A stretch of DNA of 64,000 nt, taken from Candidatus Krumholzibacteriota bacterium (lineage in GTDB: Bacteria; Krumholzibacteriota; Krumholzibacteriia; LZORAL124-64-63). Position numbers and translations under genes: made by a program. The notes beneath the pieces were generated by a model. That model made no database searches, was not told where the DNA came from, and saw only the letters and a list, made by a program, of their open reading frames with translations. The stretch is taken from contig JBDLKA010000001.1 of the NCBI GenBank assembly GCA_039714075.1, forward strand, positions 1-64,000, given 5' to 3'. Shown here piece by piece: positions 9,227 through 39,018 of the stretch (position 1 is its first letter; each line of letters starts with the position of its first letter).

Positions 9227-9484
9227 GGGCACTCGGCAACTAATCACCCACAAGGTGCCTTGGTTCCTGTCAGGCCCGGCATTCCGTACTGGAAGCCGGG
9301 GGTTTTCCTTTACCGGGAAAATTTTTCCCCTTGGCCCGGATTCATCTTGTCGACTTCGTGCAAACGGCCCGCAAAGGCCCTGAATCGGCTCTGAACGGAT
9401 CGTGACCCTATTTCCTGTTTGTCGCTCCCAGGAAATTTTTTCCCGCTTTCCCGTTCAATCGATCCCGAAGCGGCCAATGGTGCA

Positions 9485-9500
9485 CGGCATGGGGCTTGCC
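9485..9500 (+). promoter_or_regulatory. sigma54 promoter candidate upstream of the flgL stub and fliW-csrA
   Basis: CGGCATGGGGCTTGCC (GG-N10-GC). Confidence 0.6.
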
Positions 9501-9527
9501 CAGCCGTGTTCAGGAAGTGGGACAGGT

Positions 9528-9620
9528 GTGCCTGCCGAAAGGGCTGAAGCCAGTAACCAGACCAGCTTGCTTGTGACAAGGAAGTTATTGGCCAACAACC
9601 TGATGCAGCGCCTACGTTAA
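9528..9620 (+). pseudogene. flgL: Remnant resembling the C-terminus of hook-filament junction protein FlgL
   Basis: AEASNQTSLLVTRKLLANNLMQRLR* resembles the FlgL end (E..YQASL.VT.KL...SLMD.LR*) and lies immediately before fliW, the usual flgL position. Confidence 0.5.
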
Positions 9621-10610: not shown

Positions 10611-10751
10611 TTTTCCCGTCAGGCTTTGCTATTGAAGCAGGCCAGGAGAGGTTCCCCGACCGCGGTCTGGCCTGCGTATTGAAGACATACCCAACCGCTC
10701 CCTGATTTCCAGCGCCAACATGGTTCCCCTGGGACAGGGCTTCACCCTGAA

Positions 10752-16571: not shown

Positions 16572-17287
16572 TGACAGCCACATTGATTCCGAACGCAGAG
16601 AAAACCGTCTCCCGGACGACCGAAACGGGTGAGCGCCAGGACCGCCGTCTGCTGGTCGGCTATCTGCACAAGACCAGCAATACCCTGTGTGGAATCAAGG
16701 GATACGCAAGCCTCATCGCCGACCGGGAAGCCGGCGCCGGGCAGGCGGGCCGCTGGGCCCGCAAGATCATCGCCGAGGTAGAGAGGATGGAGGAGATATT
16801 CCGTTCCGTTGGTGACCTGACGCGGGGCCGCCAAAACCCCGATGTCGGCGTGGACCTGCCGGGGCTGGTCCACGATGTGGCCAAGGAAATCGCCCGCAAT
16901 GGATGGGGACTCGACCTGCAGGTCGGCGACATACCTGCCGGAGAGCTGAAGCTGCCGGTAGCGGATCTCGTGCTCATGCTGTCGGAAATCCTCAACAACT
17001 GCGCGGAAAGTCGTGCCTCCGATTCAGACCGGGTGTCGGCCGCGATCCACGGCGAACGCGACCGCGATGGCAGGGTTTTCCTGAAGGTGAAGGATGATGG
17101 TTGCGGCATGGATGATGGACTTCTGGCGCAAGCAACAAGTCCTTTCGTGACCAACAAGGAGGGCCACCACGGAGTGGGGCTGACCCGGGTGGACACGTTG
17201 ATGGAGATGTACGGACTGGCCTGGACCCTGGAAAGCCAGGCAGGACGGGGAACCAATATCAGACTTGAGGTCGCCGAAGGTTATTGA
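16571..17287 (+). CDS. Sensor-less histidine kinase (FleS/FlrB position)
   Basis: Atypical H-box LHKTSNTL, EILNNCAES, DDGCG, PFVTNK, GVGL. No input domain. TGATG coupling to the previous gene. Confidence 0.7.
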   Translation: MTATLIPNAEKTVSRTTETGERQDRRLLVGYLHKTSNTLCGIKGYASLIADREAGAGQAGRWARKIIAEVERMEEIFRSVGDLTRGRQNPDVGVDLPGLVHDVAKEIARNGWGLDLQVGDIPAGELKLPVADLVLMLSEILNNCAESRASDSDRVSAAIHGERDRDGRVFLKVKDDGCGMDDGLLAQATSPFVTNKEGHHGVGLTRVDTLMEMYGLAWTLESQAGRGTNIRLEVAEGY

Positions 17288-17303
17288 GGTGGACGAAAGG
17301 GAC

Positions 17304-18677
17304 ATGATGTCTTTGAAACGGAACATCCTGGTTGTCGATGACGAACCGACCATGCGGGACTTTCTGAAGTCTTCCCTGGGAGACAGGTATGAGGTTCGCA
17401 CGGCCGCCGACGGACCCGAGGCCCTGGCCTTGTTGAAGAAATCCCGGAGCGACCTGGTCCTGTCCGACATCCAGATGCCCGCCGGTGGCGGTATGGAACT
17501 GTTGGGGAATATCCGGGAGAGCCTCGACTACCATCCTTCGGTTGTCCTGATGACCGCCTTCGCCACCGTGGAGCAAGCCGTCAAGGCCACGCGGAACGGG
17601 GCGGACGACTACATCTGCAAACCCTTCGGTCTGGATCAACTGGACCACGTCCTGGAGCGTGCCTTCACGGTGCGGCAACTGCACCGGGAGAACACGAATC
17701 TCCGAGCCAACCTGGTGGACCGGACGGGCAATCTGGGTCTGTTGGGCAACAATCCCGCCATGGTCGAACTCCGGGAAAAAATCGCCATGATCGCGGACTC
17801 ACGGGGCACCGTTCTTCTGCAGGGTGAAAGCGGAACCGGGAAGGATGTTGCGGCCCGGGCAATCCACGAATCCGGATCCCGGCGGAACGGACCCTTCATC
17901 CGCCTGAATTGCGCGGCCATCCCCGAGGCTCTTCTGGAATCCGAATTGTTCGGGTACGAACGGGGGGCTTTCACCGGAGCGGTACAATCGCGGCAGGGAA
18001 AATTTGAACTGGCGGACGGTGGCACCCTGCTGCTGGACGAAATCAGCGAAATGCCCCTCACCATGCAAGCCAATCTTTTGCGGGTGCTTCAGGAACGGGA
18101 GTTCATGCGCCTGGGCGCGCGGCACGCGACCCGCGCGGATGTCCGGATCATCGCCACGACGAACCGTAATCTTCGCGAGCGCATCAAGGCCGGGAGTTTC
18201 CGGGAGGATCTGTTCTTTCGTCTCAATTTCATTCCCCTTTGGCTGGTGCCGCTTCGCTCCCGCCTGGACGATGTCCCGCTGCTGGCGCGGCATTTTACCC
18301 AGAACTTCTGTGCCGCTAACAACAAGCCGCTCATGGAATTCACCGGGGGCGCCCTGCGCTGCCTGATAGGCATGGACTGGCCGGGTAACGTCCGGCAGTT
18401 GCGGAATGTCATCGAAAGGGCGGTCATTCTTTCGACCTCCGGCCGCCTTGACGAAGAGGTGCTGGGGCTCACCGACGAAATGGTGGCGGCCCCTGCCGCG
18501 GAGGGCTTTCCCGCCGACATGACCCTCAAGGATATGGAACGGGAACTCATCCTGCGGAAACTGTCCCACACAAGCGGCAACCGGACCAAGGCGGCCCGGG
18601 AGCTCGGGATCAGTGTCAGGACGTTGCGCAATAAACTGAACCTTTACGCCGGCATGGGCCGGGAGATTCCGGGTTGA
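17304..18677 (+). CDS. sigma54-dependent response regulator (FleR/FlrC-like)
   Basis: Receiver, GESGTGKD, GAFTGA, WPGNVRQL, HTH GISVRTLRNKL. Directly upstream of the flgB/fliE position. Confidence 0.9.
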   Translation: MMSLKRNILVVDDEPTMRDFLKSSLGDRYEVRTAADGPEALALLKKSRSDLVLSDIQMPAGGGMELLGNIRESLDYHPSVVLMTAFATVEQAVKATRNGADDYICKPFGLDQLDHVLERAFTVRQLHRENTNLRANLVDRTGNLGLLGNNPAMVELREKIAMIADSRGTVLLQGESGTGKDVAARAIHESGSRRNGPFIRLNCAAIPEALLESELFGYERGAFTGAVQSRQGKFELADGGTLLLDEISEMPLTMQANLLRVLQEREFMRLGARHATRADVRIIATTNRNLRERIKAGSFREDLFFRLNFIPLWLVPLRSRLDDVPLLARHFTQNFCAANNKPLMEFTGGALRCLIGMDWPGNVRQLRNVIERAVILSTSGRLDEEVLGLTDEMVAAPAAEGFPADMTLKDMERELILRKLSHTSGNRTKAARELGISVRTLRNKLNLYAGMGREIPG

Positions 18678-18681
18678 GCCA

Positions 18682-18942
18682 ATGATCAAGACAGGACTTA
18701 TCGACAAAAGCCATCTGGCGGTCCTCAGGAAGGCCGTCGATGTCTACTCGCGACAAACAGTCGACATGGATTCGGGTTTCGGTGACGGGGTCAACAACGT
18801 CGATATCGATCAAGAGATGACGATTCCGGCGACCAAAGACCTCAACTACCGCATGGCCACCCGCTTCCTCAGCATGCGCTATAGCGTGCTGAGGGGAGCC
18901 ATCAAGGGCCAGGACATGTTCAACGACGCACTCAAGATCTAG
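18682..18942 (+). pseudogene. flgB: Internally deleted FlgB fused to a FlgC-like C-terminal tail
   Basis: FlgB N-terminus (VLRKAVDVYSRQ) joined directly to the C-terminal GVNNVDIDQEM...LRGAIKG. The NIAN-TPGY motif is missing. Ends DMFNDALKI*, like FlgC C-termini. 86 aa. Confidence 0.65.
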
Positions 18943-18986: not shown

Positions 18987-19289
18987 ATGGGAATCGGCAG
19001 CATCAAATCCCTGGGTTCGGTTGACCCGCGGGCGGTCTACGGCTCCGCCGGCACGACCCCGGCCCCCCGAACCTCTTTCGCCGAACAGTTGAAGAACGCG
19101 GTGGCCGCGGTGAACGATCTCCAGATCCAGCGTGAAGACATGGTGGAACAGATGGCAACCGGGGAAGTCACCGAGGTCCAGGACGTCATGATTGCGGCCA
19201 AGGAATCGCAGCTGGCCTTCGAGTTGCTATTGGAAATCAGGAACAAGCTGCTGGAGTCATACCAGGAAATCATGCACATGCAGGTTTAG
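18987..19289 (+). CDS. fliE: Flagellar hook-basal body protein FliE
   Basis: SFAEQLKNAV.AVNDLQ...DVMIAA...IRNKLLESYQEIMHMQV. Confidence 0.95.
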   Translation: MGIGSIKSLGSVDPRAVYGSAGTTPAPRTSFAEQLKNAVAAVNDLQIQREDMVEQMATGEVTEVQDVMIAAKESQLAFELLLEIRNKLLESYQEIMHMQV

Positions 19290-19322: not shown

Positions 19323-20855
19323 GTGGATGGAATCAGGAACGCGACGGACAACTTCATGGCTCGCTTCGGAGGACTTTCCTTCAACCAGAAGGTTCTCGCC
19401 GGGGCGATCGCCACGGCCAGCGTGATCAGCATTGCTGTGTTCTCATTGTGGCTTCAAAATGAGGAAACAGCCGTTTTGTTCACGAATTTGAGCCCTGAGG
19501 ACGCATCTGTGGCCCTGGAGGAACTGGCCAAGCAGGATGTCGGCGCCGAGTTGACCAACGGGGGAACCACCATCCTGGTGCCCCGCAAATCCGTTCATCG
19601 CCTGCGTGTGGACCTGGCCGGCAAAGGCGTGCCTTCATCCGGAACCGTGGGTTTCGAGGTCTTCGACGGCAAACAGTACGGCCTCACCGAATTTCTCCAG
19701 AACGTCAATTTCAAGCGCGCCCTGGAGGGCGAACTGACCAAATCCATTGAGTCACTGCAAGGAATCCAGTCAGCCAGGGTCCATCTGGTTCTGCCCAAAC
19801 CGTCCATTTTCAAGACACTGGAGGCTCCGGCAACGGCCAGCGTCGTTCTGCAGATGGGACGCGGCGCGCGGCTGGAAAACGGCCGCATTTCGGGTATCCA
19901 GAGCCTGGTGGCCGGCAGCGTGGAAAACCTGGCTGTCGGCCAGGTCACGATCATCGATCAGTACGGCAAGGTCCTTTCCCGGGGAATCAATGATGGGGAC
20001 ACCGGACGAAGCGAAAACCAATTGGCCCTGCGCAAGGAAGTTGAGGGGCATCTGTCGCGCAAAGCGGGCGTCATGCTGGATCGCGTTCTGGGTCCTGGCC
20101 GCTCGGTTGTCCAGGTGGACGCCACCCTGAATTTCGAAAAGATCGATCGGGAGAGGGAAATTTTCGATCCCCAGAACACCGTCGTGCGCAGCGAGGTGCG
20201 GAACGAAACCACGGACCCCGAAACAGGCGGTTTGGATGAATACAGCACCACGAACTACGAGATCAACCGGACCGTCGAACACATCGTTGGCGAAATCGGC
20301 GGAGTCAAACGCCTCTCCGTGGCCGTGTTCGTTGACGGACACTACGCGGAACTCCAGGACGGGGGAGCGCCTCTTTATCAACCGCTCACCGAAGACGAGT
20401 TGGCCCAGCTGCGCCGCATCGTCCAGACGGCCGTGGGCCTGAACAACGTCAGGGGCGACCAGATCGAGATCGTCAACATGCAGTTCCGCCAACCGGAAAT
20501 CACAGCTCCGACGCCCCTCCAGGAAGACTGGATGGGCATGGTTACCCGCTACGGCGGCAAAGCTTTCCTGTTTTTTCTTTTCGGAGTGATCCTGCTCAGC
20601 CTGCGAAAAGGGTTTAGCGGTTTGATGTCCCTGGAAATGTCCGCCCCGCGGACCCGGATTGCCCAGGCGGCTGCAAAGCGGGAGACCGATCCTTTCGAGG
20701 GCATTCCCGACATGGACGACCAGGTCATCAACGACATCAAGGATTTCGCTGCGGACAATCCCGAACGGGTGGCCGATGTGGTTCAGTCCTGGATCCATGA
20801 AATGAACCTGGGCAACGCGCCCGGGGAACCGGTGGGGGACTCAAGTGAACGATAA
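19323..20855 (+). CDS. fliF: MS-ring protein FliF
   Basis: Two TMs. GFEVFD, RALEGEL, SARVHLVLP, NYEIN, RLSVAV and RGDQIEI motifs. Confidence 0.95.
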   Translation: MDGIRNATDNFMARFGGLSFNQKVLAGAIATASVISIAVFSLWLQNEETAVLFTNLSPEDASVALEELAKQDVGAELTNGGTTILVPRKSVHRLRVDLAGKGVPSSGTVGFEVFDGKQYGLTEFLQNVNFKRALEGELTKSIESLQGIQSARVHLVLPKPSIFKTLEAPATASVVLQMGRGARLENGRISGIQSLVAGSVENLAVGQVTIIDQYGKVLSRGINDGDTGRSENQLALRKEVEGHLSRKAGVMLDRVLGPGRSVVQVDATLNFEKIDREREIFDPQNTVVRSEVRNETTDPETGGLDEYSTTNYEINRTVEHIVGEIGGVKRLSVAVFVDGHYAELQDGGAPLYQPLTEDELAQLRRIVQTAVGLNNVRGDQIEIVNMQFRQPEITAPTPLQEDWMGMVTRYGGKAFLFFLFGVILLSLRKGFSGLMSLEMSAPRTRIAQAAAKRETDPFEGIPDMDDQVINDIKDFAADNPERVADVVQSWIHEMNLGNAPGEPVGDSSER

Positions 20856-21846
20856 CGCCGTACGGAAAGCAGCTGTATTCCTGATGACCCTGGGGCCGGA
20901 CGTGGCCGGCAAGGTCCTTTCCCAGCTGCCCGAGAACATGGTGGAGGAATTGACCCACTCCATCGCCGGCATGGGCCCGGTGGGTTCCAATGAAAAAAAG
21001 CAGTCCCTCAACGATTTCATTTCCAGCAGCGGCCAGAATTCCGGTATAGCCACCGGCGGCCAGGAGATGGCCAAGCAGATTCTGGAAGCGGGGTTCGGCG
21101 CCCGGCGGGCGACCTCGATGCTTAGCCGGGTCACCAGTTACAGTGAAATACAAAGTTTCGAACACCTGAAGGATGTCGATCCGCTGACCATTGCGAACTA
21201 TCTGCGCCATGAACATCCGCAGACCGTGGCGGTGGTTCTGGCCCACATGGATCCCAGGGCCAGCGGACCGATCCTTTCCCAGATGCCGGCTGACATGCAG
21301 GGCAATATCGCCCATCGCATGGCCATTCTGGAGGCGCCCAACGCCGAGACGCTCAAGGCGGTGGAAATCGTGTTGGCTGGTCAGCTCCAGGGAGAGCTGA
21401 CCGCCCGGGAAGCCAAATATGGCGGCCGCAAACAGGTGGCCGATATCCTCAACGAGGTGGACCGGGACGTCTGGCAGGAGATCCTGGACGAGATGCGGGA
21501 AATCGATGATGAAGTGGCCAACGAGGTCAACAACCTCATGTTCGTCTTTGAAGACGTGGTCCTGTTGAACGACGGCCACATTCAGGAAATCCTCAAGGAA
21601 ATCGACGGCAAGGAACTGACTCTGGCCCTCAAGGGGGCCACCAACGAGATACGCGACAAGGTGTTCGGAAACATGTCCAAACGTGCGGCCCAGGGGATCA
21701 TGGAGGACATGGACTACATGGGGCCCGTACGCTTGGCCGAAGTCGAGGAAGCCCAGAAACGTATCGTCGAAGTGATTCGGATCCTGGAGGCGAACGGCAC
21801 CATCACTATCGGAAAGGGCAGCAAGGATGCGGAAATGGTGCCCTAA
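20845..21846 (+). CDS. fliG: Motor switch protein FliG
   Basis: KAAVFL, EHPQTVA, MFVFEDV, NMSKRAA and GPVRLAEVEEAQ motifs. Confidence 0.95.
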   Translation: MNDNAVRKAAVFLMTLGPDVAGKVLSQLPENMVEELTHSIAGMGPVGSNEKKQSLNDFISSSGQNSGIATGGQEMAKQILEAGFGARRATSMLSRVTSYSEIQSFEHLKDVDPLTIANYLRHEHPQTVAVVLAHMDPRASGPILSQMPADMQGNIAHRMAILEAPNAETLKAVEIVLAGQLQGELTAREAKYGGRKQVADILNEVDRDVWQEILDEMREIDDEVANEVNNLMFVFEDVVLLNDGHIQEILKEIDGKELTLALKGATNEIRDKVFGNMSKRAAQGIMEDMDYMGPVRLAEVEEAQKRIVEVIRILEANGTITIGKGSKDAEMVP

Positions 21847-22600
21847 ACCTCTGGCCGTTGATTCGGTAACCGGCAGGACCGTTGCCGAAGACGGTTCCGC
21901 ACCGGGAGAGGGTTTTGTTCCCTGGTCTGCGACCCGGGACCCCGGTTTCGAGAAAGCCCCCGTCTTCGCAAATGACCCGCATCTTACCGGCGGAACTTCA
22001 CTTTGGGACCTGATGAGCGGCAAAGAAAAAGAAGCACTTCTGGCCGAAGCGCGTCATGGTCTCCAGGAGGAGTACCAGACCAGGGAAGCGGAACTTTGTG
22101 AAAGTCACCGTGAGGAATTGGCTGCGGTCCGGGAAAAGCTCGAGGGCCGCCTGGATCATTGGAGCAGGGAGTTCGAGGCGGATCTGGCCCGGGAACGCCA
22201 TGTCCTGGCGGTGGATGCTGCGGGGTTGGCTGTTGCGTTGGCGCGGAAGATCATTCGAGACACGGTGGCCGTTGACCGGGAGGTCGTGGTCCGTACCCTG
22301 GAAACAGCTCTTTACAAAGCGCAGGACTCCCACCCCCTGACGGCGATCCTGAACCCCGCAGACGCAGAATACCTGGAAAATAAACCCGATTTGTTGGCAC
22401 GGCTGCGTATTGCAAAAGTGGTCTCCGACCGTCGGGTGGAAATGGGAGGCTGCCGTGTCCGGGCCGGATCCAGGGAATGGGACGCAACCCTCACGCGGCA
22501 GGTGGACACCCTGGCCGCCATCGTGGAAGAAACATTGGCTGCCGGCGAAACCGATCTTGTGAACCTGCCTGGAGAGACCGATGATTCCGGCCTGGACTAG
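21827..22600 (+). CDS. fliH: Flagellar assembly protein FliH
   Basis: Between fliG and fliI. ALARKII, LNPAD and GGCRV...DAT motifs. Confidence 0.85.
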   Translation: MRKWCPKPLAVDSVTGRTVAEDGSAPGEGFVPWSATRDPGFEKAPVFANDPHLTGGTSLWDLMSGKEKEALLAEARHGLQEEYQTREAELCESHREELAAVREKLEGRLDHWSREFEADLARERHVLAVDAAGLAVALARKIIRDTVAVDREVVVRTLETALYKAQDSHPLTAILNPADAEYLENKPDLLARLRIAKVVSDRRVEMGGCRVRAGSREWDATLTRQVDTLAAIVEETLAAGETDLVNLPGETDDSGLD

Positions 22601-23900
22601 ACTCGACGGAGCGATCCGAACCGCCGGCACCATCCAGCCGGTTGGCCGTGTCTCCAATCTGGTGGGCATGGTCATCGAAGTCGAGGGCTTGACGGCTCCG
22701 ATCGGTTCCTTGTGCCGGATTCATGTGGGGCGTCACGAACCCGATGTCCTCAGTGAAGTCATTGGTTTCCGGGACGACACCCTTTTGGTCATGCCCTACC
22801 AGCTGACCAGGGGAGTGGCCACCGGGTGCCGGGTCGACCTCCTCTCCCGCAAGATGACCGTTCCGACCGGACCCCGTTTGCTCGGGCGCGTTGTCGACGG
22901 CCTGGGTCGTCCCATCGACGGGGGTCCTTCCCTGGCCGGCCTTCCGCAGCGCAACCTCGGCGGCAAACCGCCTTGTCCCCTGAGACGGAAGCGGACCGGG
23001 GAAATCCTGGGCACGGGGATCCGCTCCATCGACAGCCTGGTCACCACCGCCCGCGGCCAAAGGATGGGGATTTTCTCAGGCAGTGGTATTGGTAAATCCG
23101 TACTGATGGGAATGCTGGCCCGGAACGCCCAGTCCGAAGTCAACGTCCTGGCCCTGATCGGTGAGCGCGGGAGGGAAGTAAAGGAATTCCTGGAAAGGGA
23201 CCTGGGGCCGGAAGGCCTGGCCCGCAGCGTCGTGGTCGTTGTCACCTCCGATGAAAGCGCTGTGTTGCGGGCCAAAGGCGCCGACACGGCCATGACCATC
23301 GCCGAATCGTTCCGGGAAAACGACCAGTCCGTCCTGTTCATGATGGATTCCGCCACTCGTTACGCCATGGCCCTGCGTGAAATAGGCCTGGCGGCCGGTG
23401 AGCCTCCGACCACCAAAGGCTACCCGCCCTCGGTCTTCGCCGCCCTGCCCCGCCTGTGCGAGCGTGCCGGCTGGTCGGACGTCAATTCCATGACGGCATT
23501 CTTCTCCGTTCTCATTGAAGGTGATGATATCCAGGATCCGTTGGGTGACGCGATGCGTTCCATTTTGGATGGGCACATCATGCTCAGCCGTGATTTGGCC
23601 CGACGTCACCACTATCCGGCCGTCGATGTCCTGGGCAGCGTCAGCCGCTTGCGAAACGACGTGGTCCCCCAGGAAGACATCCAGGCTGGAGCCAGGATGA
23701 TGAACTGGCTCAAGATCCTGGAAGACAACAGGGATCTGATCAACATCGGTGCTTACGTCCCGGGTTCAGACCCGGTCCTGGACCAGGCCCTTGAACGCGA
23801 AGAGGAAATCAGGTCCTTCCTGACTCAGGAAGTTCATGAAGGCTTTGCCACGGAGGAATGCCTGGCGAGCCTGCGTCGGTTGACGGAGGTCGAAAGATGA
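22581..23900 (+). CDS. fliI: Export ATPase FliI
   Basis: Walker A GSGIGKS, GERGREV, MMDSATRYA, GEPPTTKGYPPSVF, ILDGHIMLSR. Confidence 0.97.
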   Translation: MIPAWTRLDGAIRTAGTIQPVGRVSNLVGMVIEVEGLTAPIGSLCRIHVGRHEPDVLSEVIGFRDDTLLVMPYQLTRGVATGCRVDLLSRKMTVPTGPRLLGRVVDGLGRPIDGGPSLAGLPQRNLGGKPPCPLRRKRTGEILGTGIRSIDSLVTTARGQRMGIFSGSGIGKSVLMGMLARNAQSEVNVLALIGERGREVKEFLERDLGPEGLARSVVVVVTSDESAVLRAKGADTAMTIAESFRENDQSVLFMMDSATRYAMALREIGLAAGEPPTTKGYPPSVFAALPRLCERAGWSDVNSMTAFFSVLIEGDDIQDPLGDAMRSILDGHIMLSRDLARRHHYPAVDVLGSVSRLRNDVVPQEDIQAGARMMNWLKILEDNRDLINIGAYVPGSDPVLDQALEREEEIRSFLTQEVHEGFATEECLASLRRLTEVER

Positions 23901-24385
23901 GTCAATTCAACTTCAGATTGGAAAAGGTTTGGCGCCACCGGCAGCGCCTGGTCGACAAGAATTCCCTGGAAGTCGCGCAGGCCGACCGCCGGGTGGCACG
24001 GCTGGCCCGGCATATTGTGGAATTGGACGGGAATATTTCCCGGCATCACCACACCCTGGAGCCATGTATAGGACAGCAGTTGCAGACCAGTGAGCTCATA
24101 ACCGGGGCGGCCTGGCTGGATCACCTCCAAACCCTGAGAAGCGATCTGGAAGGCCAACTTGAAACGGCCACGCGGGATCTGGCCCGCTTTCGGGCAAGGT
24201 TGACGGAATCCTGGCGCGATCTGGAAATCCTGTCGCGCCTGAAAGACCGTCAGGAAGCGACCTGGCAAACGGTGCAGGATAGAAAGGAACGGCGGGAAAC
24301 GGACGAAATCGGCCGGTCCCGCCGAAGACGGCCTGGACAGGTCCAGGTTTCCGGTAGATGCAAAGTTCTGCCGGATGATAACTGA
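23897..24385 (+). CDS. fliJ: Export protein FliJ
   Basis: MSQFNFRLEKV...coiled coil...ERRETDE. Overlaps the fliI stop. Confidence 0.85.
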   Translation: MSQFNFRLEKVWRHRQRLVDKNSLEVAQADRRVARLARHIVELDGNISRHHHTLEPCIGQQLQTSELITGAAWLDHLQTLRSDLEGQLETATRDLARFRARLTESWRDLEILSRLKDRQEATWQTVQDRKERRETDEIGRSRRRRPGQVQVSGRCKVLPDDN

Positions 24386-25015: not shown

Positions 25016-25070
25016 TGAATCTTGATTGGCAGTCCCCGGGACAGGCCGCCGCAGCAAGGAGCTAAAGTTC

Positions 25071-25356: not shown

Positions 25357-26139
25357 GTGGACATTGCAACGATCATTGGTCTGGCCGCCGCCTTCGGGTT
25401 GGTGGGATGGTCCATTCTGGCGGGGGGGAACCTCAGCGGGTTTCTGAACCTGCAGGCAGCTGCCATCGTCCTGGGCGGGACCTTCGGTTCTCTTCTGGTC
25501 CATTTCCCCCTTTCACGAATTTTCGGCCTTTTCCACATCCTCAGGAAAACCCTGGTCTTTTCCCAACTCGAACCCGACGCCGTTATTGGAAAAATGGTCA
25601 AGTACGCGGAAAGGGCCCGGCGGGAAGGAATGCTGGCCCTGGAAGAGGATTCGGAGATCGAGGAAGACGAATTCCTGCGCAAGGGTCTCAGGCTGGCCGT
25701 GGACGGCACCGACCCGCTGCTTTTGGAAAAGATCCTCCACACCGACCTGCAGCAGATAGAGAACCGCCATATGGAAGGGGCCAGGATCCTGGCAGCCGGA
25801 GGGGCCTTCGCGCCGGCCTTCGGCATGATCGGTACCCTGATAGGGTTGGTCAGTATGCTGTCCACCTTGTCGGATCCCGCAAAGATCGGTACCGGCATGG
25901 CGACCGCCCTGGTGACGACCTTCTACGGCGCCGTGTTGGCCAATGCCCTGTTTCTGCCATTGGCGGGGAAACTGGAGACCAGGTCCCGGGAGGAAATCCT
26001 GAACAAGGAAATGGTCATTGACGGCATCATGGCCATTCAAAGCGGAGACTCGCCCCGCATCGTCGAGGAAAAACTGAAATCGTTCCTGTCCCCATCACTG
26101 CGCCGCAAGATCGACGACGCCCGGGAACAGGCCGCCTGA
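25357..26139 (+). CDS. motA: Stator A subunit (MotA/PomA/MotP)
   Basis: MDIATIIG, ARREGMLALE, APAFGMIGTLIGL, ALVTTFYG motifs. Confidence 0.95.
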   Translation: MDIATIIGLAAAFGLVGWSILAGGNLSGFLNLQAAAIVLGGTFGSLLVHFPLSRIFGLFHILRKTLVFSQLEPDAVIGKMVKYAERARREGMLALEEDSEIEEDEFLRKGLRLAVDGTDPLLLEKILHTDLQQIENRHMEGARILAAGGAFAPAFGMIGTLIGLVSMLSTLSDPAKIGTGMATALVTTFYGAVLANALFLPLAGKLETRSREEILNKEMVIDGIMAIQSGDSPRIVEEKLKSFLSPSLRRKIDDAREQAA

Positions 26140-26191
26140 CGGGACCCGTTGAAGGTCATACAAGTGCCGCGCTCGGGAGGGCGGTGTTGCC

Positions 26192-26953
26192 ATGAGAAAA
26201 CGGAGAAAGGAACTGGTAATCCACCGCAAGGTCGACGGTTGGATCATGACCTACGCGGACATGATGAGCCTGCTGCTGACTTTTTTCGTGCTGATCGTTT
26301 CCTTTTCCTCGCTGAAGCATTCCAAGTTCAAACAGGCGGCGCAGTCGTTGCAGGAGGCATTTGGCCTTCTCGAAACCCCCGATTCGGTCATCGAATTCCG
26401 TAACCCCGTTTATCCGGACCGGATCCGGGATTTCGATGACGCCGATGTCTATTACGAGATGCAGGAGCTTGAGCAGGTCATCCTGGAAACCGGACTCGAC
26501 CGCGAAGTTGACATCCAACTCCAGGACAACGGCGTCATGTTCAGGATTCAGGCTCCCTTCCTGTTCGGTTCCGGGGTGGCAGAACTGCGGGATGAACCCC
26601 GGAATGTCCTGAAGGAACTGTCCGTCATGTTCCGGAAATTCCCCTACCTGGTCCGGATCGAAGGCCACACCGACAGCCAGCCCATCAATTCCGAACGTTT
26701 TCCGTCCAACTGGGAGCTCTCGTCCGCCCGTGCGGTGACCGTGGCACGATACTTTCAAGGTCTGGGACTGCCGCCCGCAAGGATAGCGGCCACAGGATTC
26801 GGGGAATACCAACCCATCGGCGACAACGCCACGGCCGCAGGGCGGGAAATGAACAGAAGAGTGGAGATTTTCCTGCAATTGGACAAAAGAGACCTGCCCC
26901 GGGGCGAGGCTTTGCCTTTCGCGGACCCGGTTTTCAAGCGGGCAGGGACCTGA
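26192..26953 (+). CDS. motB: Stator B subunit (MotB/PomB) with OmpA-like peptidoglycan-binding domain
   Basis: WIMTYADMMSLLLTFFVLIVSFS, IEGHTD, NWELSSARA, NRRVEI motifs. Confidence 0.95.
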   Translation: MRKRRKELVIHRKVDGWIMTYADMMSLLLTFFVLIVSFSSLKHSKFKQAAQSLQEAFGLLETPDSVIEFRNPVYPDRIRDFDDADVYYEMQELEQVILETGLDREVDIQLQDNGVMFRIQAPFLFGSGVAELRDEPRNVLKELSVMFRKFPYLVRIEGHTDSQPINSERFPSNWELSSARAVTVARYFQGLGLPPARIAATGFGEYQPIGDNATAAGREMNRRVEIFLQLDKRDLPRGEALPFADPVFKRAGT

Positions 26954-27063
26954 CCAAGGGCTGGGAAAACGGATGAAAATGCGCCGGTGCGGTCGAAAAT
27001 CGAGCCGTGACCGGTGCCAGAGCGGATTCAAGCCGGTTTTGCAACCAGACAAGGAGTATGAGA

Positions 27064-27585
27064 ATGGCCCTCAAATCAACCAAGACCCCGGGTGACGCCG
27101 AAGTGGTGGACAAAAAGGGACTCCTGGACAACAAGGCCGTTCTGCTGGGAGTCATCGTTATCGTCCAGGCCCTGGTGGCCATCGGACTGACGCAATACGT
27201 CCTGGTGCCCAAGCTCAATGTCCAGGAGGCCGCCGTGGTTCCAGAATCCATCGTGGATGTGGCTTCCGAAGTGCCTCAGCGTGGTGTCATGGTCGGTCTG
27301 GAGGATATCATCGTCACCCTGGCCGGCAGTTCGCGCCATCCCCGCTATCTCCGCATCAACATCAATATCGAGGTCCAGGATCAGGTCACCGCCGAAGCCG
27401 TCCGCATGCGCCTGGCGCAGATGCGGGACGCCGTCATCATGACCCTGACCGAAAAAACGGTGGAAGACCTCAGCAAACCGGGCGGCAAGATGAACCTGCG
27501 GGCGGAAATATTCCGCCGTCTGGACGAAAGCATCGCCGGCGGAAAATTGATGAATGTCTACTTCTCGGACCTGGTCATCCAGTAA
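27064..27585 (+). CDS. fliL: Basal body-associated protein FliL
   Basis: N-terminal TM, IIVTLA...RYLRI...MRDAVI...NVYFSDLVIQ. Confidence 0.9.
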   Translation: MALKSTKTPGDAEVVDKKGLLDNKAVLLGVIVIVQALVAIGLTQYVLVPKLNVQEAAVVPESIVDVASEVPQRGVMVGLEDIIVTLAGSSRHPRYLRININIEVQDQVTAEAVRMRLAQMRDAVIMTLTEKTVEDLSKPGGKMNLRAEIFRRLDESIAGGKLMNVYFSDLVIQ

Positions 27586-27603
27586 GCGGACGAAGGGGTT
27601 GTC

Positions 27604-28656
27604 GTGGCGCCAGTCGATTATGAAAACCCAACCGGCGATCCGGGGCTCGATCCGCAGACCGACCTGGGTGACGCCATCGACGCGGCCGAGGAATTGGCAG
27701 GAGCCGTGGATGACGGCCTGGGTCTGGATCTGGCCGATGTCCTGAACGCGTCTTCCCTGGAAGAAGACCCGGGGGACGGGCCGGTTAAATACGATTTCCA
27801 CAGGCCCCATCACATTTCCAGTCCCTTCCAGAAGAACCTGCAGGCGGTATCCGAGTATTTCGCCAAAAACGGGACCATCGAATTCACCAGCCGGCTGCGC
27901 ATGACCACCGATGTCGAATACATGGGATTGCGCCAATGCACCTACGGGGAATTCGTCGGTGAACTTCCCCGGCCGACCTGCGCGGCCATGGTTGATCTGC
28001 CGCCCCTGAAGGGGCCGGCCCTGCTGCACCTGGATCTGGGACTCAGTTTCGTCTTCATGAAGAAACTTCTGGGCGGACTTCCCGAAGCGGAAACCATGTT
28101 GCGGGATTTCACGGAAATCGAACGGGGTATAGCCACCGACCTGGTGGAACGTTTCGTGGAACTGTTCCGCAAATCGATGTCCAAACTCGTGGAAGTCGAT
28201 TCCCGCCTGTCGGGTCTGGAGAACAACCCGCATTACCTGAGCGGCATTTCCGAGGGTTCTTCCCTGCTGATCCTCATGTTCAAGGTCAAACTGGACAATT
28301 TCGAGGGTCCCATCCAATGGGCGATGCCCTTGTCCTCCTTCGGTCCCGTGCGCGAGATCTTCGACCCCACGGACATCAAGGAATCGCGCAACCACAACGA
28401 ATTGCGGGATGACCGCAGGAAAATCCTGGACATGGTCCAGGGCAGCGGCAGCGACCTGGTGGTCCAACTCGGGGAATTCCCCACGAACCTCGAAACAATT
28501 CTCAACCTGTCCGAGGGGGATGTCCTGGATTTGCCCCAGTGCGTGGACGCGCCCCTCAGGATCCAGATCGCCGGCAGGGATGCCTGGCTCGGAGAAGCCG
28601 GGCGGGTGGGCAACAACCGGGCAGTCCAGCTGGTCCGCCAGTTGACCAAGGAGTAG
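27604..28656 (+). CDS. fliM: Motor switch protein FliM (no LSQxEID motif)
   Basis: YDFHRP, TYGEF, LLGG, RDFTEIE and C-terminal SpoA domain (L.EGDVL.L). Confidence 0.88.
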   Translation: MAPVDYENPTGDPGLDPQTDLGDAIDAAEELAGAVDDGLGLDLADVLNASSLEEDPGDGPVKYDFHRPHHISSPFQKNLQAVSEYFAKNGTIEFTSRLRMTTDVEYMGLRQCTYGEFVGELPRPTCAAMVDLPPLKGPALLHLDLGLSFVFMKKLLGGLPEAETMLRDFTEIERGIATDLVERFVELFRKSMSKLVEVDSRLSGLENNPHYLSGISEGSSLLILMFKVKLDNFEGPIQWAMPLSSFGPVREIFDPTDIKESRNHNELRDDRRKILDMVQGSGSDLVVQLGEFPTNLETILNLSEGDVLDLPQCVDAPLRIQIAGRDAWLGEAGRVGNNRAVQLVRQLTKE

Positions 28657-28660
28657 ACGA

Positions 28661-29068
28661 ATGTCAAGCGAAGACAACAATCCGATTTTCGAGGAAAACC
28701 TGGAGCCGGGAGAGGCCGCCTCGCCCGGGGGGGACGCCACCGGTACCGCGGTGATGGATGATGACTCATCCTCCCTTATCAGCGACCTGGAAAACGACGT
28801 GGCGGACCCTTCCAACCTGGACCTGCTGTTGGACGTCAACCTGCAGGTCTCCGTGGAACTCGGACGGGCGGCCTTGAAATTCCGTGAGGTCCTGAACCTG
28901 GCCACCGGCTCGGTGGTGGAACTGGATCGCCAGACCAACGAACCGGTGGACATCCTGGTCAACGGATCACTTCTGGCCACCGGCGAAGTCGTGGTGGTCG
29001 ACGATCATTTCGCCGTACGCATCACCAAGCTTCTCAACCGGGTGGAAAGGCTGAAGAAGGTCCTGTGA
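28661..29068 (+). CDS. fliN: Motor switch protein FliN
   Basis: LDLLLDV.L.VSVELGR...GSVVELD...GEVVVVDD.FAVRIT. Confidence 0.95.
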   Translation: MSSEDNNPIFEENLEPGEAASPGGDATGTAVMDDDSSSLISDLENDVADPSNLDLLLDVNLQVSVELGRAALKFREVLNLATGSVVELDRQTNEPVDILVNGSLLATGEVVVVDDHFAVRITKLLNRVERLKKVL

Positions 29069-29415
29069 TGGTCATCCCCGCGGCATTGATTCAATCGGTC
29101 CCGGCCACTTTGGCCGGCGGCTCGTTTGCCGCGGACGGGGGAATGTCGTGGTGGCAGACCCTGGGCGGGCTGGTGGCTGTCTTCGGCCTGCTGCTGGTCA
29201 GTCTGAAACTCCTGGGAAAATGGAACCGCCGGACCGGCGGGGCCGAATCCTCCCTTCTGACCGTGTGGCATCTGGGACCCAAAAGGGAGATCCAGGTCCT
29301 GCGGTTGGGCGACCAGGTCCATTACGTCTACCGCCACGATGGCGCCATGGTCACTCTCCGGACCGAACCCCTGGTCGATTTCGAACGCACCCAGGCCGGC
29401 GCCCCGGCCGGCTGA
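29065..29415 (+). CDS. fliO: FliO-like export chaperone
   Basis: TM followed by LGPKREIQVLRLGD. Between fliN and fliP. Confidence 0.75.
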   Translation: MMVIPAALIQSVPATLAGGSFAADGGMSWWQTLGGLVAVFGLLLVSLKLLGKWNRRTGGAESSLLTVWHLGPKREIQVLRLGDQVHYVYRHDGAMVTLRTEPLVDFERTQAGAPAG

Positions 29416-29574
29416 TCCCATCTGGCTAGAATCTGGTCGAATTCCTTCCAAATCATCATTATCCCGGGTCGTCTGGACTTTTTCCGGTTGGCCGCGGGCC
29501 TGTCTTGCCATTCTTAACTTGTGATATATTAAGGCCTTAAGAATATTTTTACTGGGATCCCGAACGCACCAGTA

Positions 29575-29590
29575 TGGCATGCCCATTGCC
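29575..29590 (+). promoter_or_regulatory. sigma54 promoter candidate upstream of fliP
   Basis: TGGCATGCCCATTGCC (GG-N10-GC) after an AT-rich gap. Confidence 0.6.
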
Positions 29591-29627
29591 TTACCCTGAT
29601 TGGGAACATCCGGCGCCCCCGTGGGGC

Positions 29628-30491
29628 GTGGTCATTCTTTTCAGGAAGCCGGGCACAATTTTGAATTCGCGCGACAACAATTCTTGGGCACCCAAGGGAA
29701 CCCTGGTGGTTCTCGCGGTCCTGATCGGGATTTCCGTATCAGCCGCATCCGTCCGGGCGGAGGACGCCGCCCAACCCGAGCCCATGGCGACCGCCCAGGT
29801 GGGAAACATCCCTCCGGTGGCTCCGGTGATGACCCTGACCCTCGAAGGCGCGGACGGGCCCAGGTCCATGGACTCCGCCCTGAAAATCGTCCTCCTGATG
29901 ACCGTTCTGTCACTGGCGCCCGCCTTCCTGGTTCTGCTGACCAGTTTCACCCGCATCGTCATCGTTCTGGGATTCCTGCGCCAGGCCATCGGCGCCAACC
30001 AGGCCCCCAACAACCAGATCATCATCGGTCTGGCCCTGTTCCTGACCCTGGTGGTCATGTCGCCGACCCTGCACCAGATGAACCAGGACGCCATCCAGCC
30101 CTTCATGAACGAACAGATGAGCCAGGGGGAGGCCTTCACCAAGGTCCAGGTTCCCCTGAAGGAGTTCATGCTCAGTCAGGTCCGTGAAAAGGATGTGGCT
30201 CTGTTTCTGGACCTGACCGAAACCGAAGCCCCGGACACGCCCCAGGATCTGCCGATGCTGGTGGTGATCCCCAGCTTCGTCCTGAGTGAATTGAAGACCG
30301 CCTTCCAGATGGGTTTCGTTCTCTTCATCCCGTTTCTGATCATCGACATGGTGGTGGCTTCGGTTCTGATGTCCATGGGCATGATGATGCTGCCGCCGGT
30401 CCTGATCAGCCTTCCCTTCAAGATATTGCTCTTCGTTCTCGTCGACGGATGGTTCCTGGTCGTCAAGTCGTTGGTCCAGGCCTTTCAGTAG
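29628..30491 (+). CDS. fliP: Export gate FliP (start uncertain: GTG 29628 or TTG 29661)
   Basis: LAPAF...TSFTRI, SELKTAFQMG, MGMMMLPP, LPFKILLFVLVDGW motifs. Confidence 0.95.
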   Translation: MVILFRKPGTILNSRDNNSWAPKGTLVVLAVLIGISVSAASVRAEDAAQPEPMATAQVGNIPPVAPVMTLTLEGADGPRSMDSALKIVLLMTVLSLAPAFLVLLTSFTRIVIVLGFLRQAIGANQAPNNQIIIGLALFLTLVVMSPTLHQMNQDAIQPFMNEQMSQGEAFTKVQVPLKEFMLSQVREKDVALFLDLTETEAPDTPQDLPMLVVIPSFVLSELKTAFQMGFVLFIPFLIIDMVVASVLMSMGMMMLPPVLISLPFKILLFVLVDGWFLVVKSLVQAFQ

Positions 30492-30509
30492 GGGAAAAGG
30501 AATTCAGTC

Positions 30510-30773
30510 ATGACACCTGAAACGGTTATCGAAATCGGACAATACGCCATGAAGACGGCGATATTCGTGGCCGGGCCGATGCTGGTCGCCGGCATGATCG
30601 TGGGCCTGGCCATCAGTATCTTCCAGGCCGCCACGCAGATCAACGAGATGACCATGACTTTCGTACCCAAGATCCTGACGGTGTTCCTGGTCCTGATCCT
30701 GACCCTGCCCTGGGCCATCAACCAGATGACGGGGTTCACCGTGGCCATGTTCAACCGCATCGCCGGAATGTAG
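30510..30773 (+). CDS. fliQ: Export gate FliQ
   Basis: FQAATQINEMTMTFVPK. Confidence 0.97.
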   Translation: MTPETVIEIGQYAMKTAIFVAGPMLVAGMIVGLAISIFQAATQINEMTMTFVPKILTVFLVLILTLPWAINQMTGFTVAMFNRIAGM

Positions 30774-30781
30774 GCGGACCG

Positions 30782-31564
30782 GTGCGGTTCGAACTGGACA
30801 TAACTCTTCTGGCGGTAACCGCGGCCCTGGCTGTCCGCTTCGGCGTTCTGGCGGCCACCCTTCCCCTGCTGGACAGGAGAAGCGTCCCGCCTCTGTGGAG
30901 GGTTGTCCTGGCCGTCGGTTTTGCCGCCGCCCTGGCGCCCGGCATCTCCCGCGCCCTGCCGCCGGGAATGGCATCCTTGGCCTGGCCCGATCTGGTGATG
31001 GAAGCGGTGCGCTCGCTGGTGGTGGGGGCGCTTTTGGGGTTCACCATCAACCTGGTCTTCACGGCCGTCCGTTACGCGGGCTCCATTGCAGGCATGCAGA
31101 TCGGATTCGCCATCGTCAACTCCTACGATCCCATGAGCAACTCCCAGGTTTCCGTGATTTCCCAGCTCTACTACCTGTTGGCCGTCCTGCTCTTTTTCGT
31201 CACCGGCGCGCATCAGATTCTCGTGGCGGCCATGTACCAGTCATGCCTGGCAGTGCCGCCCTTCACTCCGGGGGATCCGGTCGGCGGTGCCTGGTTCCTG
31301 ATGCGTGAATTCGGCACCGTATTCTCTCTCGGACTGCAGATCGCCGCGCCCATCGTGATCGTCCTTCTCCTGGTCAGCGCTTCGATGGGGGTCATCGTGA
31401 AAACCGTGCCCCAGCTCAATGTCCTGGTGGTGGGGTTTCCCATCAAGATCGGGGTGGGGCTCATCACCCTGGGGCTTTCGCTGGTGTTCTTCCGGGAAAT
31501 CACCACTTCGGTGATGGCGGGTATGCAGGGCCGGCTGGCTGATCTGCTGCTGGCCATGAAATAG
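30782..31564 (+). CDS. fliR: Export gate FliR
   Basis: Multi-TM. AG...GMQIGF...YDP and PQLNVLVVGFPIKI motifs. Confidence 0.93.
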   Translation: MRFELDITLLAVTAALAVRFGVLAATLPLLDRRSVPPLWRVVLAVGFAAALAPGISRALPPGMASLAWPDLVMEAVRSLVVGALLGFTINLVFTAVRYAGSIAGMQIGFAIVNSYDPMSNSQVSVISQLYYLLAVLLFFVTGAHQILVAAMYQSCLAVPPFTPGDPVGGAWFLMREFGTVFSLGLQIAAPIVIVLLLVSASMGVIVKTVPQLNVLVVGFPIKIGVGLITLGLSLVFFREITTSVMAGMQGRLADLLLAMK

Positions 31565-31580
31565 TACGGGGAGGTGAATC

Positions 31581-32642
31581 ATGGCCGATGAAACAGGCGC
31601 CGAAAGAACAGAAAAAGCGACAGTCAAGCGCAGGGAACAGGCACGCGAACGCGGGCAGGTGGCACGCAGCACGGAAGTCACCAGCGCCGTTCTGCTGTTT
31701 GCCGGCGTCCTGGTCCTCGTGGGCGGCAGCGGGCATTTCTCTTCGGTCCTCGGCCGGAACACTTTCTATCTCTTGTCGCAAGCACACATCCTGGGTCCGG
31801 ACAACCAGTTCGCCTTGCAGGAACTGGTGCGGGGCAACCTCGAAATTCTCTTGTCGGCGTTGGCTCCCCTGCTGCTGGTCGTTCTGCTGGCGGCCGTGGG
31901 CGCCAACGTGATGCAGGTCGGCTTCCACGCCAGCACCAAGGCCATTGCCTTCAAGACCGAAAAGCTGAATCCCGTCACCGGAATGAAACGCTTCTTCCAG
32001 AAGACGACCTACTTCGACATGGTCAAACACTTCCTCAAGATCCTGGTCATCGGGCTCCTGGCCTGGGTCACGATCCAGGGCCTGCTGGAGCATCTGGTGG
32101 GGGCGGCGGTCCTGCCGCTACCGGCCATCGTGGATATGGCCCGGACCGATTTTGTGCACCTGATGGTAAAACTCCTTCTCTTCATGGCCATCCTTGCCGT
32201 CATCGACTGGTTTTGGCAAAAGAACCGGCATGAGGAAAACCTCAAAATGACCCGGCAGGAAGTGAAGCGGGAAAACAGGGACATCGAAGGGGATCCCCAG
32301 ATCAAGGCCCGTGTCCGGGGCCTCCAGTACGAGATGGCCCGCAAGCGAATGCTGGCCGATGTGCCCACCGCGGACGTCGTGGTGACCAATCCGACCCATT
32401 TCGCGGTGGCCTTGAAATACGCCCCCGGCTCGTCGGCTCCCCAGGTGGTTGCCAAGGGTCAGGACCATGTGGCACAGATGATCAAAAAAGTGGCCCGCCA
32501 GTCACGCGTTCCCGTCATGGAAAACAAGCCTTTGGCCCGCGCATTGCACAAGGAAGTCGAAGTGGGGGCCGGAATTCCCGAAAGCCTGTACCAGGCCTTG
32601 GCCGAAGTGCTGGCCTACGTGTACCACCGGAAAAGGTCCTGA
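31581..32642 (+). CDS. flhB: Export switch protein FlhB
   Basis: ERTEKAT, EGDPQIK, NPTH autocleavage motif, VAKG, LARAL. Confidence 0.96.
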   Translation: MADETGAERTEKATVKRREQARERGQVARSTEVTSAVLLFAGVLVLVGGSGHFSSVLGRNTFYLLSQAHILGPDNQFALQELVRGNLEILLSALAPLLLVVLLAAVGANVMQVGFHASTKAIAFKTEKLNPVTGMKRFFQKTTYFDMVKHFLKILVIGLLAWVTIQGLLEHLVGAAVLPLPAIVDMARTDFVHLMVKLLLFMAILAVIDWFWQKNRHEENLKMTRQEVKRENRDIEGDPQIKARVRGLQYEMARKRMLADVPTADVVVTNPTHFAVALKYAPGSSAPQVVAKGQDHVAQMIKKVARQSRVPVMENKPLARALHKEVEVGAGIPESLYQALAEVLAYVYHRKRS

Positions 32643-32672
32643 CCCGGGCCGTCGGACAAGGGAGACTGAAGC

Positions 32673-35901: not shown

Positions 35902-35924
35902 AGGGCGAAAGGAAATCAGACGGT

Positions 35925-36158: not shown

Positions 36159-36185
36159 CGGCACCCGTACGCGCAGGGCGGCTGA

Positions 36186-36201: not shown

Positions 36202-36239
36202 AATGCAACAGGGTTGCACCTCACCAGAAAGGTTGGCTA

Positions 36240-39009: not shown

Positions 39010-39018
39010 GGTTAAAGT

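Follow-up and report, generated by a model that had tools for sequence, protein, structure and literature searches.

Partial flagellar gene sets are known, and it is disputed whether they are functional or merely decaying. Lysobacter enzymogenes OH11 is described as non-flagellated and without fliC, with flgC, flgG, flgE, flgD, flgH and flgI kept, and both expression of its flagellar T3SS and export of other proteins through it have been reported (PMC7688988). In the scenario described by Abby and Rocha (2012), the injectisome lineage began when genes specific to the flagellum were lost, and translocation was kept (PMC3459982). Intermediate flagellar gene counts are reported for ~4% of genomes in a 2025 ISME J survey of how flagella are lost, which also asks what rotor proteins do when there is no filament (PMC12199754). 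We found no paper describing the reduction pattern reported here, or flagellar reduction in Krumholzibacteriota.

The stretch of DNA that we analyzed, called the window below, is the opening 64 kb of contig C1 in G000, a metagenome bin of 260 contigs with an estimated completeness of 92% and an estimated contamination of 4.3%. It contains an open reading frame (ORF) of 86 codons located where relatives encode the rod proteins FlgB and FlgC, and we think it probable that this ORF is a decaying scar left by in-frame deletions in flgB and flgC. The ORF, its parts and its neighbors are as follows.

17265..18677, + strand: sigma-54 response regulator gene, directly upstream of the ORF (ORF calls, Pfam)
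18682..18942, + strand: chimeric flgB/flgC remnant ORF, 86 codons (alignment with FlgB homologues, TIGR01396 profile search)
18682..18753, + strand: segment 1, FlgB residues 1-24 (same-genus matches, alignment)
18754..18912, + strand: segment 2, FlgB residues 82-134, C-terminal helix region (alignment, blastn)
18907..18912, + strand: GGCCAG at the second junction (overlapping blastn pieces)
18913..18942, + strand: segment 3, last 9 codons of flgC and stop codon (FlgC tail identity, synteny into fliE)
18987..19289, + strand: fliE, intact, the only axial-type protein left (PF02049, 9.2e-26)

Alignment with 25 FlgB homologues placed FlgB residues 1-24 at residues 1-24 of the ORF and FlgB residues 82-134 at residues 25-77. 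The 57 FlgB residues between them (25-81), including the NISNVETPGY rod motif, are missing, which bears out the proposal in the initial annotation that the N-terminal part of FlgB is joined in frame to its C-terminal helix and skips the N(I/L)..TPGY segment. Of 41 genomes searched with the ORF protein, 33 matched. All seven same-genus genomes (7/7) matched twice inside one FlgB frame, first with ORF residues 1-25/27 (72-78% identity, E 3e-7 to 9e-6) and again from approximately residues 9-30 to 77-78 (E 6e-21 to 2e-18). The tail, DMFNDALKI, had been read as the end of FlgC, and this assignment held: it is identical at 9/9 positions to the last nine FlgC residues in 6/6 same-genus loci with a recovered FlgC ORF, variants of it form the FlgC C-terminus in 6 loci from other genera, and fliE comes next. 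The ORF lists of two same-genus loci gave a 136-aa FlgB, a 167-aa FlgC ending ...TAKDMFNDALKI, and then a 100-aa FliE; FlgB has a length of 136 aa in all of the same-genus relatives, and FlgC of 167 aa in those that were checked. Homology by blastn was unbroken from 18907 through the flgC-fliE spacer into fliE. The start codon of flgB itself is kept, 4 nt past the stop codon of the regulator gene, and 44 nt separate the end of the ORF from fliE.

No Pfam family, PF00460 (Flg_bb_rod) included, matched the ORF at E≤1. The FlgB profile TIGR01396 matched ORF residues 10-75 on profile positions 67-131 of 131, with a score of 31.2 bits (E 2.1e-7) that lies below the curated cut-off of 59.05; scored against the genome it gave 29 bits. 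The ORF has the position of a FlgB orthologue, between the regulator gene and flgC/fliE, and retains the homologous C-terminal helix. The FlgC profile TIGR01395 had 0 matches in G000 at E≤10, and only the last 9 FlgC residues remain.

In the coordinates of the congener G003, the deletion internal to flgB measures 171 nt (57 codons). The second deletion measures 498 nt (166 codons), extends from flgB codon 135 to flgC codon 158, and is composed of the 9-nt end of flgB, a 15-nt spacer and 474 nt of flgC. Both lengths are multiples of 3, in agreement with the earlier suggestion of two frame-keeping deletions; the chance that two deletions are both in frame is 1 in 9. Comparison with G003 and a second congener, G004, placed the junctions at ~18753/18754 and 18912/18913. 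The GGCCAG hexamer at the second junction aligns both with the end of flgB (GGTCAG in G003) and with the site in flgC (GCCAAG in G003), an overlap that is a possible microhomology of 5-6 nt.

We located deletion scars by blastn of the window against three congeneric contigs, and named the missing genes by Pfam searches of the relatives' ORFs. The window is collinear with its relatives across 40 kb and is broken at four places.

9349..9539, no strand: scar, ~8.9 kb lost (flgF, flgG, flgA, flgH, flgI, flgJ, flgN, flgK and most of flgL), from blastn synteny and Pfam; flanked by an HK-RR gene and fliW (9622), with the last ~65-80 nt of flgL remaining
10722..10741, no strand: scar, ~4.9 kb lost (fliS, fliD, a 155-aa ORF, fliC and a GNAT gene), from blastn synteny and Pfam; flanked by csrA (10338-10610) and flgM (10771-11184)
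18753/18754 and 18912/18913, + strand: scar, 0.67 kb lost (inner flgB; flgB end to flgC codon 158); flanked by the regulator gene and fliE
25017..25049, no strand: scar, ~3.7 kb lost (fliK, flgD and flgE), from blastn synteny and Pfam; flanked by an MgtE_N-like gene (24494-25015) and flbD (25071-25295)

That the flgB/flgC scar is one of four had escaped the initial annotation. The missing genes have not moved elsewhere in the bin. Across the whole G000 assembly, PF00460 and Flagellin_N (PF00669) had 0 matches each, and PF06429 had one sub-threshold match (E 0.135, contig C240); five same-genus genomes had 4-5 PF00460 matches each. For 18 of 26 proteins encoded in the relatives' flagellar regions, tblastn found no match anywhere in G000: FlgC, FlgF, FlgG, FlgA, FlgH, FlgI, FlgN, FlgK, FlgL, FliC, FliD, FliS, FlgE, FlgD, FliK, the GNAT protein and two unnamed ORFs. 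A candidate FlgJ was rejected, as its tblastn matches were to unrelated SLT domains only. We conclude that every rod, hook, ring and filament gene has been cleanly deleted in G000, and none was found elsewhere in this 92%-complete genome. MCPsignal matches are absent from the flagellated congeners as well, so chemotaxis genes say nothing about how recent the loss is.

The genes that remain encode the membrane-associated core of the flagellum.

19323..24385, + strand: fliF, fliG, fliH, fliI and fliJ, full length (Pfam, comparison with relatives)
25357..37190, + strand: motA, motB, fliL, fliM, fliN, fliP, fliQ (30510-30773), fliR, flhB, flhA, an flhF-like gene and fliA

The MgtE_N-like gene and flbD are full length relative to their orthologues, as are fliW, csrA, flgM, a second flgN-like gene, three histidine kinase genes and sigma-54 regulator genes. 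The export gate is represented by FHIPEP, FliP, FliQ, FliR and FlhB.

Rates of change in these genes were close to those in flagellated relatives. For the concatenated FliE-FliJ genes (1752 codons), omega was 0.126 on the G000 branch vs 0.132 in relatives, and for four regulator genes the values were 0.120 and 0.119. FliE, which is 86% identical to that of G003, had an omega of 0.13 on the G000 branch. Protein identities between G000 and its relatives were 90-92% for FliG (91-93% among the relatives), 76-80% for FliF (79-84%) and 81-84% for FliI (84-88%). Of the columns that are invariant in five flagellated genomes from three genera, G000 keeps 1141/1180 (96.7%) in motor genes, 943/969 (97.3%) in export genes and 1174/1200 (97.8%) in regulators. 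The core thus remains under normal purifying selection, from which we presume that it has a role apart from driving a filament. That non-filament role would belong to a set composed of FliE, the MS ring, the C ring, the export gate and its ATPase, the stators, FliL, FlhF, FliA/FlgM and the regulators.

The 86-aa ORF behaves differently. Over the same 77 codons it is 60-62% identical to FlgB of G003, G004 and a third congener, G006, which are 86-91% identical to one another. Branch estimates assumed the topology ((G003,G004),(G000,G006)), taken from the four-point condition on FliF dN. On its terminal branch the remnant has a dN of 0.249 (bootstrap 0.17-0.35) vs 0.018-0.040 in the three relatives, 8.7x higher. 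Its omega is ~0.29 (bootstrap 0.14-1.0) vs 0.065 in relatives. All of these omega values, those of the retained genes included, are rough because NG86 dS is 0.5-1.6, near saturation.

The nature of the replacements points the same way. In a 26-sequence alignment, the remnant deviates at 7/50 FlgB columns that are ≥95% conserved, and the other 25 sequences deviate at 0-3. The seven replacements (ORF numbering) are F7I, K16R, D34G, N35D, L49P, S55N and L62F, of which L49P substitutes proline for a near-invariant leucine in the C-terminal helix. Scored on the same kind of five-genome invariant columns as the core genes, the remnant keeps 25/29. Thirteen real differences separate it from the closest FlgB sequences (P0002-P0004). 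Of these, 11 fall in aa 25-63 and the other 2 in aa 1-24, and aa 64-77 have 0; F7I and K16R are the only two lineage-specific replacements in segment 1, and the 9-residue FlgC tail has none. A binomial estimate for the clustering in aa 25-63 is ~0.013 with windows chosen post hoc, and the ends of the peptide could still be selected.

What distinguishes the ORF from a conventional pseudogene is its frame, which is open from the flgB start to the flgC stop, with no indel and no stop in the 77 aligned codons. The marks of a gene remnant are nonetheless all present, namely a full-length orthologue in relatives, the loss of essential segments and faster nonsynonymous evolution. We considered an argument that selection has held the frame open, and dropped it: when neutral change was simulated to 0.2 substitutions per site, 35% of runs left the ORF without a stop, and because so many neutral runs stay open, openness says little in either direction.

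The initial annotation had suggested checking sister genomes for the fusion. No sister genome with the same flgB-flgC fusion was found among the genomes and metagenome contigs searched. A large protein search returned 132 proteins, with the query alone in its own cluster (1 member); among the 120 matches listed, 117 of the 119 other proteins are 135-137 aa long. The two exceptions, P0093 (75 aa, with NISNV joined to DIDNEM) and P0098 (109 aa), have internal in-frame FlgB deletions and no FlgC tail, and these deletions are independent of the one described here. A degenerate DNA pattern for IKGQ|DMFNDA had 0 matches in metagenome_contigs and 0 in genome_contigs, searches from which the window's own record was possibly omitted.

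Taken together, these observations favor a scar. Two in-frame deletions, of 57 and 166 codons, would have left the 86-aa ORF as part of a lineage-specific, multi-step removal of the rod, hook, P and L rings, hook-filament junction, filament and cap, along with their chaperones. This removal would have taken place in one species of a genus that otherwise has complete flagellar gene sets. To judge from the organisms named for its FlgB homologues, the group is probably Candidatus Krumholzibacteriia. The deletions that survived may have been those that spared expression of fliE, fliF and the genes that follow, and the ORF may act as a leader-like frame that keeps ribosomes on the ~310 nt between the regulator gene and fliE. 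As a protein it would no longer be FlgB-like because the constraint on its sequence has relaxed. The remnant is visibly decayed and ~25 neighboring flagellar genes are not, which argues that the rodless core is maintained by selection.

We surveyed 151 genomes of the phylum for the joint presence of rod and rotor genes. PF00460 was found in 86 genomes and FliG_C in 87, and 148/151 genomes were concordant, having both or neither. Three genomes are discordant. G112 (86% complete) has rod genes without FliG, and G000 and G013 have FliG without rod genes; G013 belongs to the same family as G000 but to another genus and is 98% complete in 20 contigs. The syntenic locus of G013 lies inside a 237-kb contig and is reduced further than that of G000. 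It keeps the kinase and regulator genes, fliW, csrA, fliG (N, M and C domains), the MgtE_N-like gene, flbD, motA, motB, fliL, fliM, fliN, an flhF-like gene, fliA and HDOD genes. Its FliF has YscJ_FliF_C without the N-terminal YscJ_FliF domain, and its FliE is a decayed C-terminal stub with ~30 recognizable residues in a mini-ORF. The locus lacks flgB, flgC, fliH, fliI, fliJ, fliPQR, flhB, flhA and flgM and has no FlgB/FlgC remnant; the whole G013 genome had no FHIPEP, FliP or Flagellin_N match.

Conservation in G013 was compared with that in flagellated genera, represented by G016 and G024, over one and the same set of reference columns. For motor proteins G013 scored 73.4% vs 77.0% for G016, and 84.4% vs 87.4% for G024; for regulators it scored 85.6% vs 86.8% for G016, and 91.6% vs 88.1% for G024. 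MotA, MotB, FliL and FlbD of G013 were equal to or better than those of the flagellated genera, and FliF, FliG and FliM were 4-10 points lower. By this measure of sequence, the G013 motor proteins are almost as conserved as those of flagellated genera. The reductions in G000 and G013 are independent, because all other sampled members of the G000 genus have rods. It is a tentative proposal, to which we give somewhat less than even credence, that in two genera of one Krumholzibacteriia family the flagellum has been pared down, independently, to a core in the inner membrane on which selection still acts, with the rotor and stator, accompanied by the export gate or not, serving a non-swimming function.

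An alternative that shares the scar but not the maintained core is that the deletions are recent and total flagellar loss is under way, with the core intact only for want of time and the replacements in the remnant arising in a burst at the time of deletion or under brief positive selection. The clustering of replacements beside the first junction would suit such a burst, and the searches turned up no sister genome sharing the fusion by which the event could be dated. The branch-wide omega of the retained genes would moreover be dominated by the time before the deletions, and in the phylum sample it is the rule that FliG and rod are both present or both absent (148/151). However, the neutral time needed for the extra dN of the remnant (~0.2) would have left stops and frameshifts throughout ~20 kb of genes had these been unconstrained, and all core genes checked are full length and keep 96.7-97.8% of deeply invariant columns. 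G013 also argues against it: in another genus, it independently keeps fliF', fliG, fliM, fliN, motAB, fliL, flbD, flhF and fliA, and its motor genes are near-normally conserved whereas its FliE stub has decayed. We consider ongoing loss unlikely, though it is the strongest competitor to a maintained core with a decaying scar.

In basal-body structures from Salmonella, FliE sits directly beneath FlgB. The initial annotation had left open the choice between a scar and a selected mini inner-rod peptide that pairs with FliE. In its most specific form, the second option is a functional mini-peptide that folds as a D0-like helical hairpin, from the N- and C-terminal helices of FlgB and the end of FlgC, and associates with FliE as a cap, plug or regulator of the rodless export gate. 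Several observations would fit. The frame survived two deletions and later divergence; the N-terminal 24 and last 23 residues, which differ from G003 at several synonymous sites, have a combined total of just 2 lineage-specific replacements; FliE is retained and constrained; and the omega of the remnant on the G000 branch, for all its wide bootstrap range, lies below 1. A low-confidence AF2 model of the ORF (pLDDT 64, pTM 0.30) also has one helix at residues 9-28 and another at 40-84.

Export is the first difficulty for such a peptide. An FxxxΦ gate-recognition motif is reported to be essential for FlhB-mediated export of rod/hook-type substrates (PMC10965912), and in Salmonella FlgB a deletion of aa 39-58, or a change of F45, is reported to impair secretion (PMC9307174). 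In the relatives, this motif (F48-E-E/D-L/M-L, F48xxxL) lies inside residues 25-81. Because it falls within the deleted segment, the stub should, by homology, be poorly exported. The conserved rod motif has been lost with this FlhB-docking motif, the long helix has a proline in place of leucine along with six more replacements at near-invariant columns, and nonsynonymous change is ~9x faster. The rod, hook and ring proteins that could have been its partners are all gone, the fusion occurs in no other genome or metagenome contig searched, and the second reduced lineage, G013, has only its decayed FliE stub and nothing of FlgB or FlgC. Poor predicted export, the helix proline, the relaxed rate and the lack of any other rod protein make a working "mini rod" unlikely, and we regard a functional mini-peptide as improbable, somewhat more so than ongoing loss. 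The scar half of the earlier either-or thus stands, favored by the dN, the 7/50 columns and the motif loss, and the peptide half is less supported.

A decaying scar may still be expressed. The flgB start beside the regulator stop, the 3' end of flgC and the ribosome-binding spacer of fliE have all been kept, and the ORF is for these reasons probably still transcribed and translated. A scan of 18200-19400 for sigma-70 promoters and terminators found nothing. A sigma-54 consensus had 63 matches vs 67.7 expected by chance, none of them upstream of the ORF. Tight translational coupling of the ORF to fliE was set aside, as the 44-nt spacer is too long for classic stop-start coupling.

The junctions were checked against independent assemblies. 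A 2050-nt contig, built with a different assembler from a public marine metagenome run, covers 17174-19223 at a depth of 16.6; its alignment has 3 mismatches and is free of gaps, and the depth across this ORF-spanning contig (~17x) equals that of its neighbors. The concern raised earlier, that reads might reveal a full flgB-flgC here, was not borne out in these contigs, and among the independent-assembly contigs listed there was no alternative joint at either junction; as the check used contigs, rare full-length flgB-flgC variants could escape detection. A second independent contig from the same marine run bridges 21703-25411. In run X1, among the matches listed, no contig crossed 9155-9540 or 10563-10742. 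As weak evidence, contigs from a second run of the same study matched parts of the region at 95-99%, and none of the insertions listed for them fell at the junctions. An assembly or binning artefact, in which the organism has a full flgB-flgC or the contig is chimeric, might be suspected in a 260-contig bin with 4.3% estimated contamination whose region was checked with contigs, but is very improbable given the gap-free contig at even depth, a junction overlap of at most 6 nt that is too short to collapse an assembly, flanks collinear with relatives on both sides across 40 kb, four separate deletions that hit exactly one functional class with the genes on no other contig, and a remnant that carries substitutions of its own.

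By itself the 86-aa ORF is a gene remnant, useful mainly as a marker and as a rough clock. The larger result is that selection keeps a flagellar core without a rod, and that the loss in G000 has a parallel in a sister genus, where a separate reduction went deeper and left rotor and stator only. This provides a natural system for asking what half a motor does, and how a secretion-only or rotor-only machine arises from a flagellum. The organisms are uncultured and represented by metagenome bins only, which limits direct tests. If the two-genus reading is true, flagellar exaptation could be seen here while it is still going on, and the 86-aa stub would be either a scar that dates the transition or a cap left behind on FliE.

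Compared with FlgB, the proximal rod protein, the ORF is alike in its orthologous position (regulator, flgB, flgC, fliE) and in sequence. It differs in lacking 57 internal residues with the Flg_bb_rod and FxxxΦ motifs, in its sub-cut-off profile score, in its fusion to 9 FlgC residues and in the change of 7 near-invariant residues. As far as the published description of L. enzymogenes OH11 extends, G000 resembles that strain in having no flagellin and in keeping the export gate (flhA, flhB, fliP, fliQ, fliR). Unlike OH11, G000 has lost all rod, hook and ring genes, and it keeps the C-ring, stator and fliH/fliI genes. Relative to the flagellar-loss survey, to the extent that its account covers such cases, the loss in G000 is resolved to breakpoints against congeners and is class-specific, taking exactly the exported and periplasmic parts, and a rate test indicates that the retained genes are still constrained. 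Set beside the Abby and Rocha scenario and the Myxococcales "Myxo" T3SS, as described there, G000 is a case in which a gene set of this kind arose inside a genus that is flagellated. Unlike the injectisome lineage, its core consists of plain flagellar orthologues by synteny, with motAB, fliG and fliL kept, in a single recent lineage and not a conserved clade.

Two regulatory pairs, CsrA-FliW and FlgM-FliA, are retained in the rodless flagellar core of the Krumholzibacteriota genome G000. The genes concerned, a flgN-like gene, and a protein encoded beyond the cluster lie at these window positions:

9622-10287, fliW, retained
10338-10610, csrA, retained
10771-11184, flgM, anti-sigma factor, retained
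16200-16571, flgN-like gene
36240-37190, fliA, sigma factor, retained
51324-54275, 983-aa protein with a weak match to peptidase M6 and, at its C-terminus, an FlgD_ig-like domain

Flagellin is the partner of FliW in the CsrA-FliW circuit, and the pair is still present despite the flagellin deletion. The right-hand deletion starts ~110 nt past the csrA stop, and the C-terminal tail of the encoded CsrA is unlike that of its relatives. FlgM and FliA persist though the hook-length protein FliK has been lost, along with the late-substrate chaperones of the deleted regions (FliS and one FlgN).

In a second public metagenome run, one contig matches both flanks of window 9344-9434; between them it carries a diverged 89-nt segment, equal in length to the corresponding stretch of the window, which falls within the scar of the flgF-flgL deletion.

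Two HDOD-domain genes in tandem, and a gene for a GGDEF diguanylate cyclase, sit just downstream of the flagellar cluster (window 38110-39927 and 44871-46316). The 983-aa protein is, by its position, unrelated to the flagellar hook cap.

The first of the two HDOD genes is likewise conserved adjoining the reduced cluster of G013, a genome from another genus of the same family. This syntenic cluster (G013:C16:145001-165000, ~4880-15159 of locus L041; also locus L040) is more reduced than that of G000: FliE is a C-terminal stub within a mini-ORF, and FliF has lost its N-terminal ring domains by in-frame deletion. After FliF follow fliG, an MgtE_N-like gene, flbD, motAB, fliL, fliM and fliN, and then a flhF-like gene, fliA and an HDOD gene. 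Searches of the whole G013 genome returned 0 matches to FHIPEP (FlhA), FliP, Flagellin_N and Flg_bb_rod, and a 60-kb stretch surrounding the cluster gave no match to fliH, fliI, fliJ, fliR or flhB.

Independent in-frame internal deletions were also seen in two metagenome FlgB proteins, the 75-aa P0093 and the 109-aa P0098, both from short contigs. The P0093 join sits between repeated NISNV and NNV-DIDNEM motifs. Because P0093 deviates at only 1 of 45 conserved columns, either its deletion arose recently or it was produced during assembly.

We compared chemotaxis domains across the whole genomes of G000, its flagellated congeners G003 and G006, and G013 with those of G024, a flagellated member of another genus in the family. 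No MCPsignal match at E<=1e-10 was found in G000, G003 or G006, each of which has only 1 CheW-domain match, whereas for G024 the counts are 10 (MCPsignal) and 4 (CheW domain). The genus of G000 may swim without a canonical chemoreceptor array.
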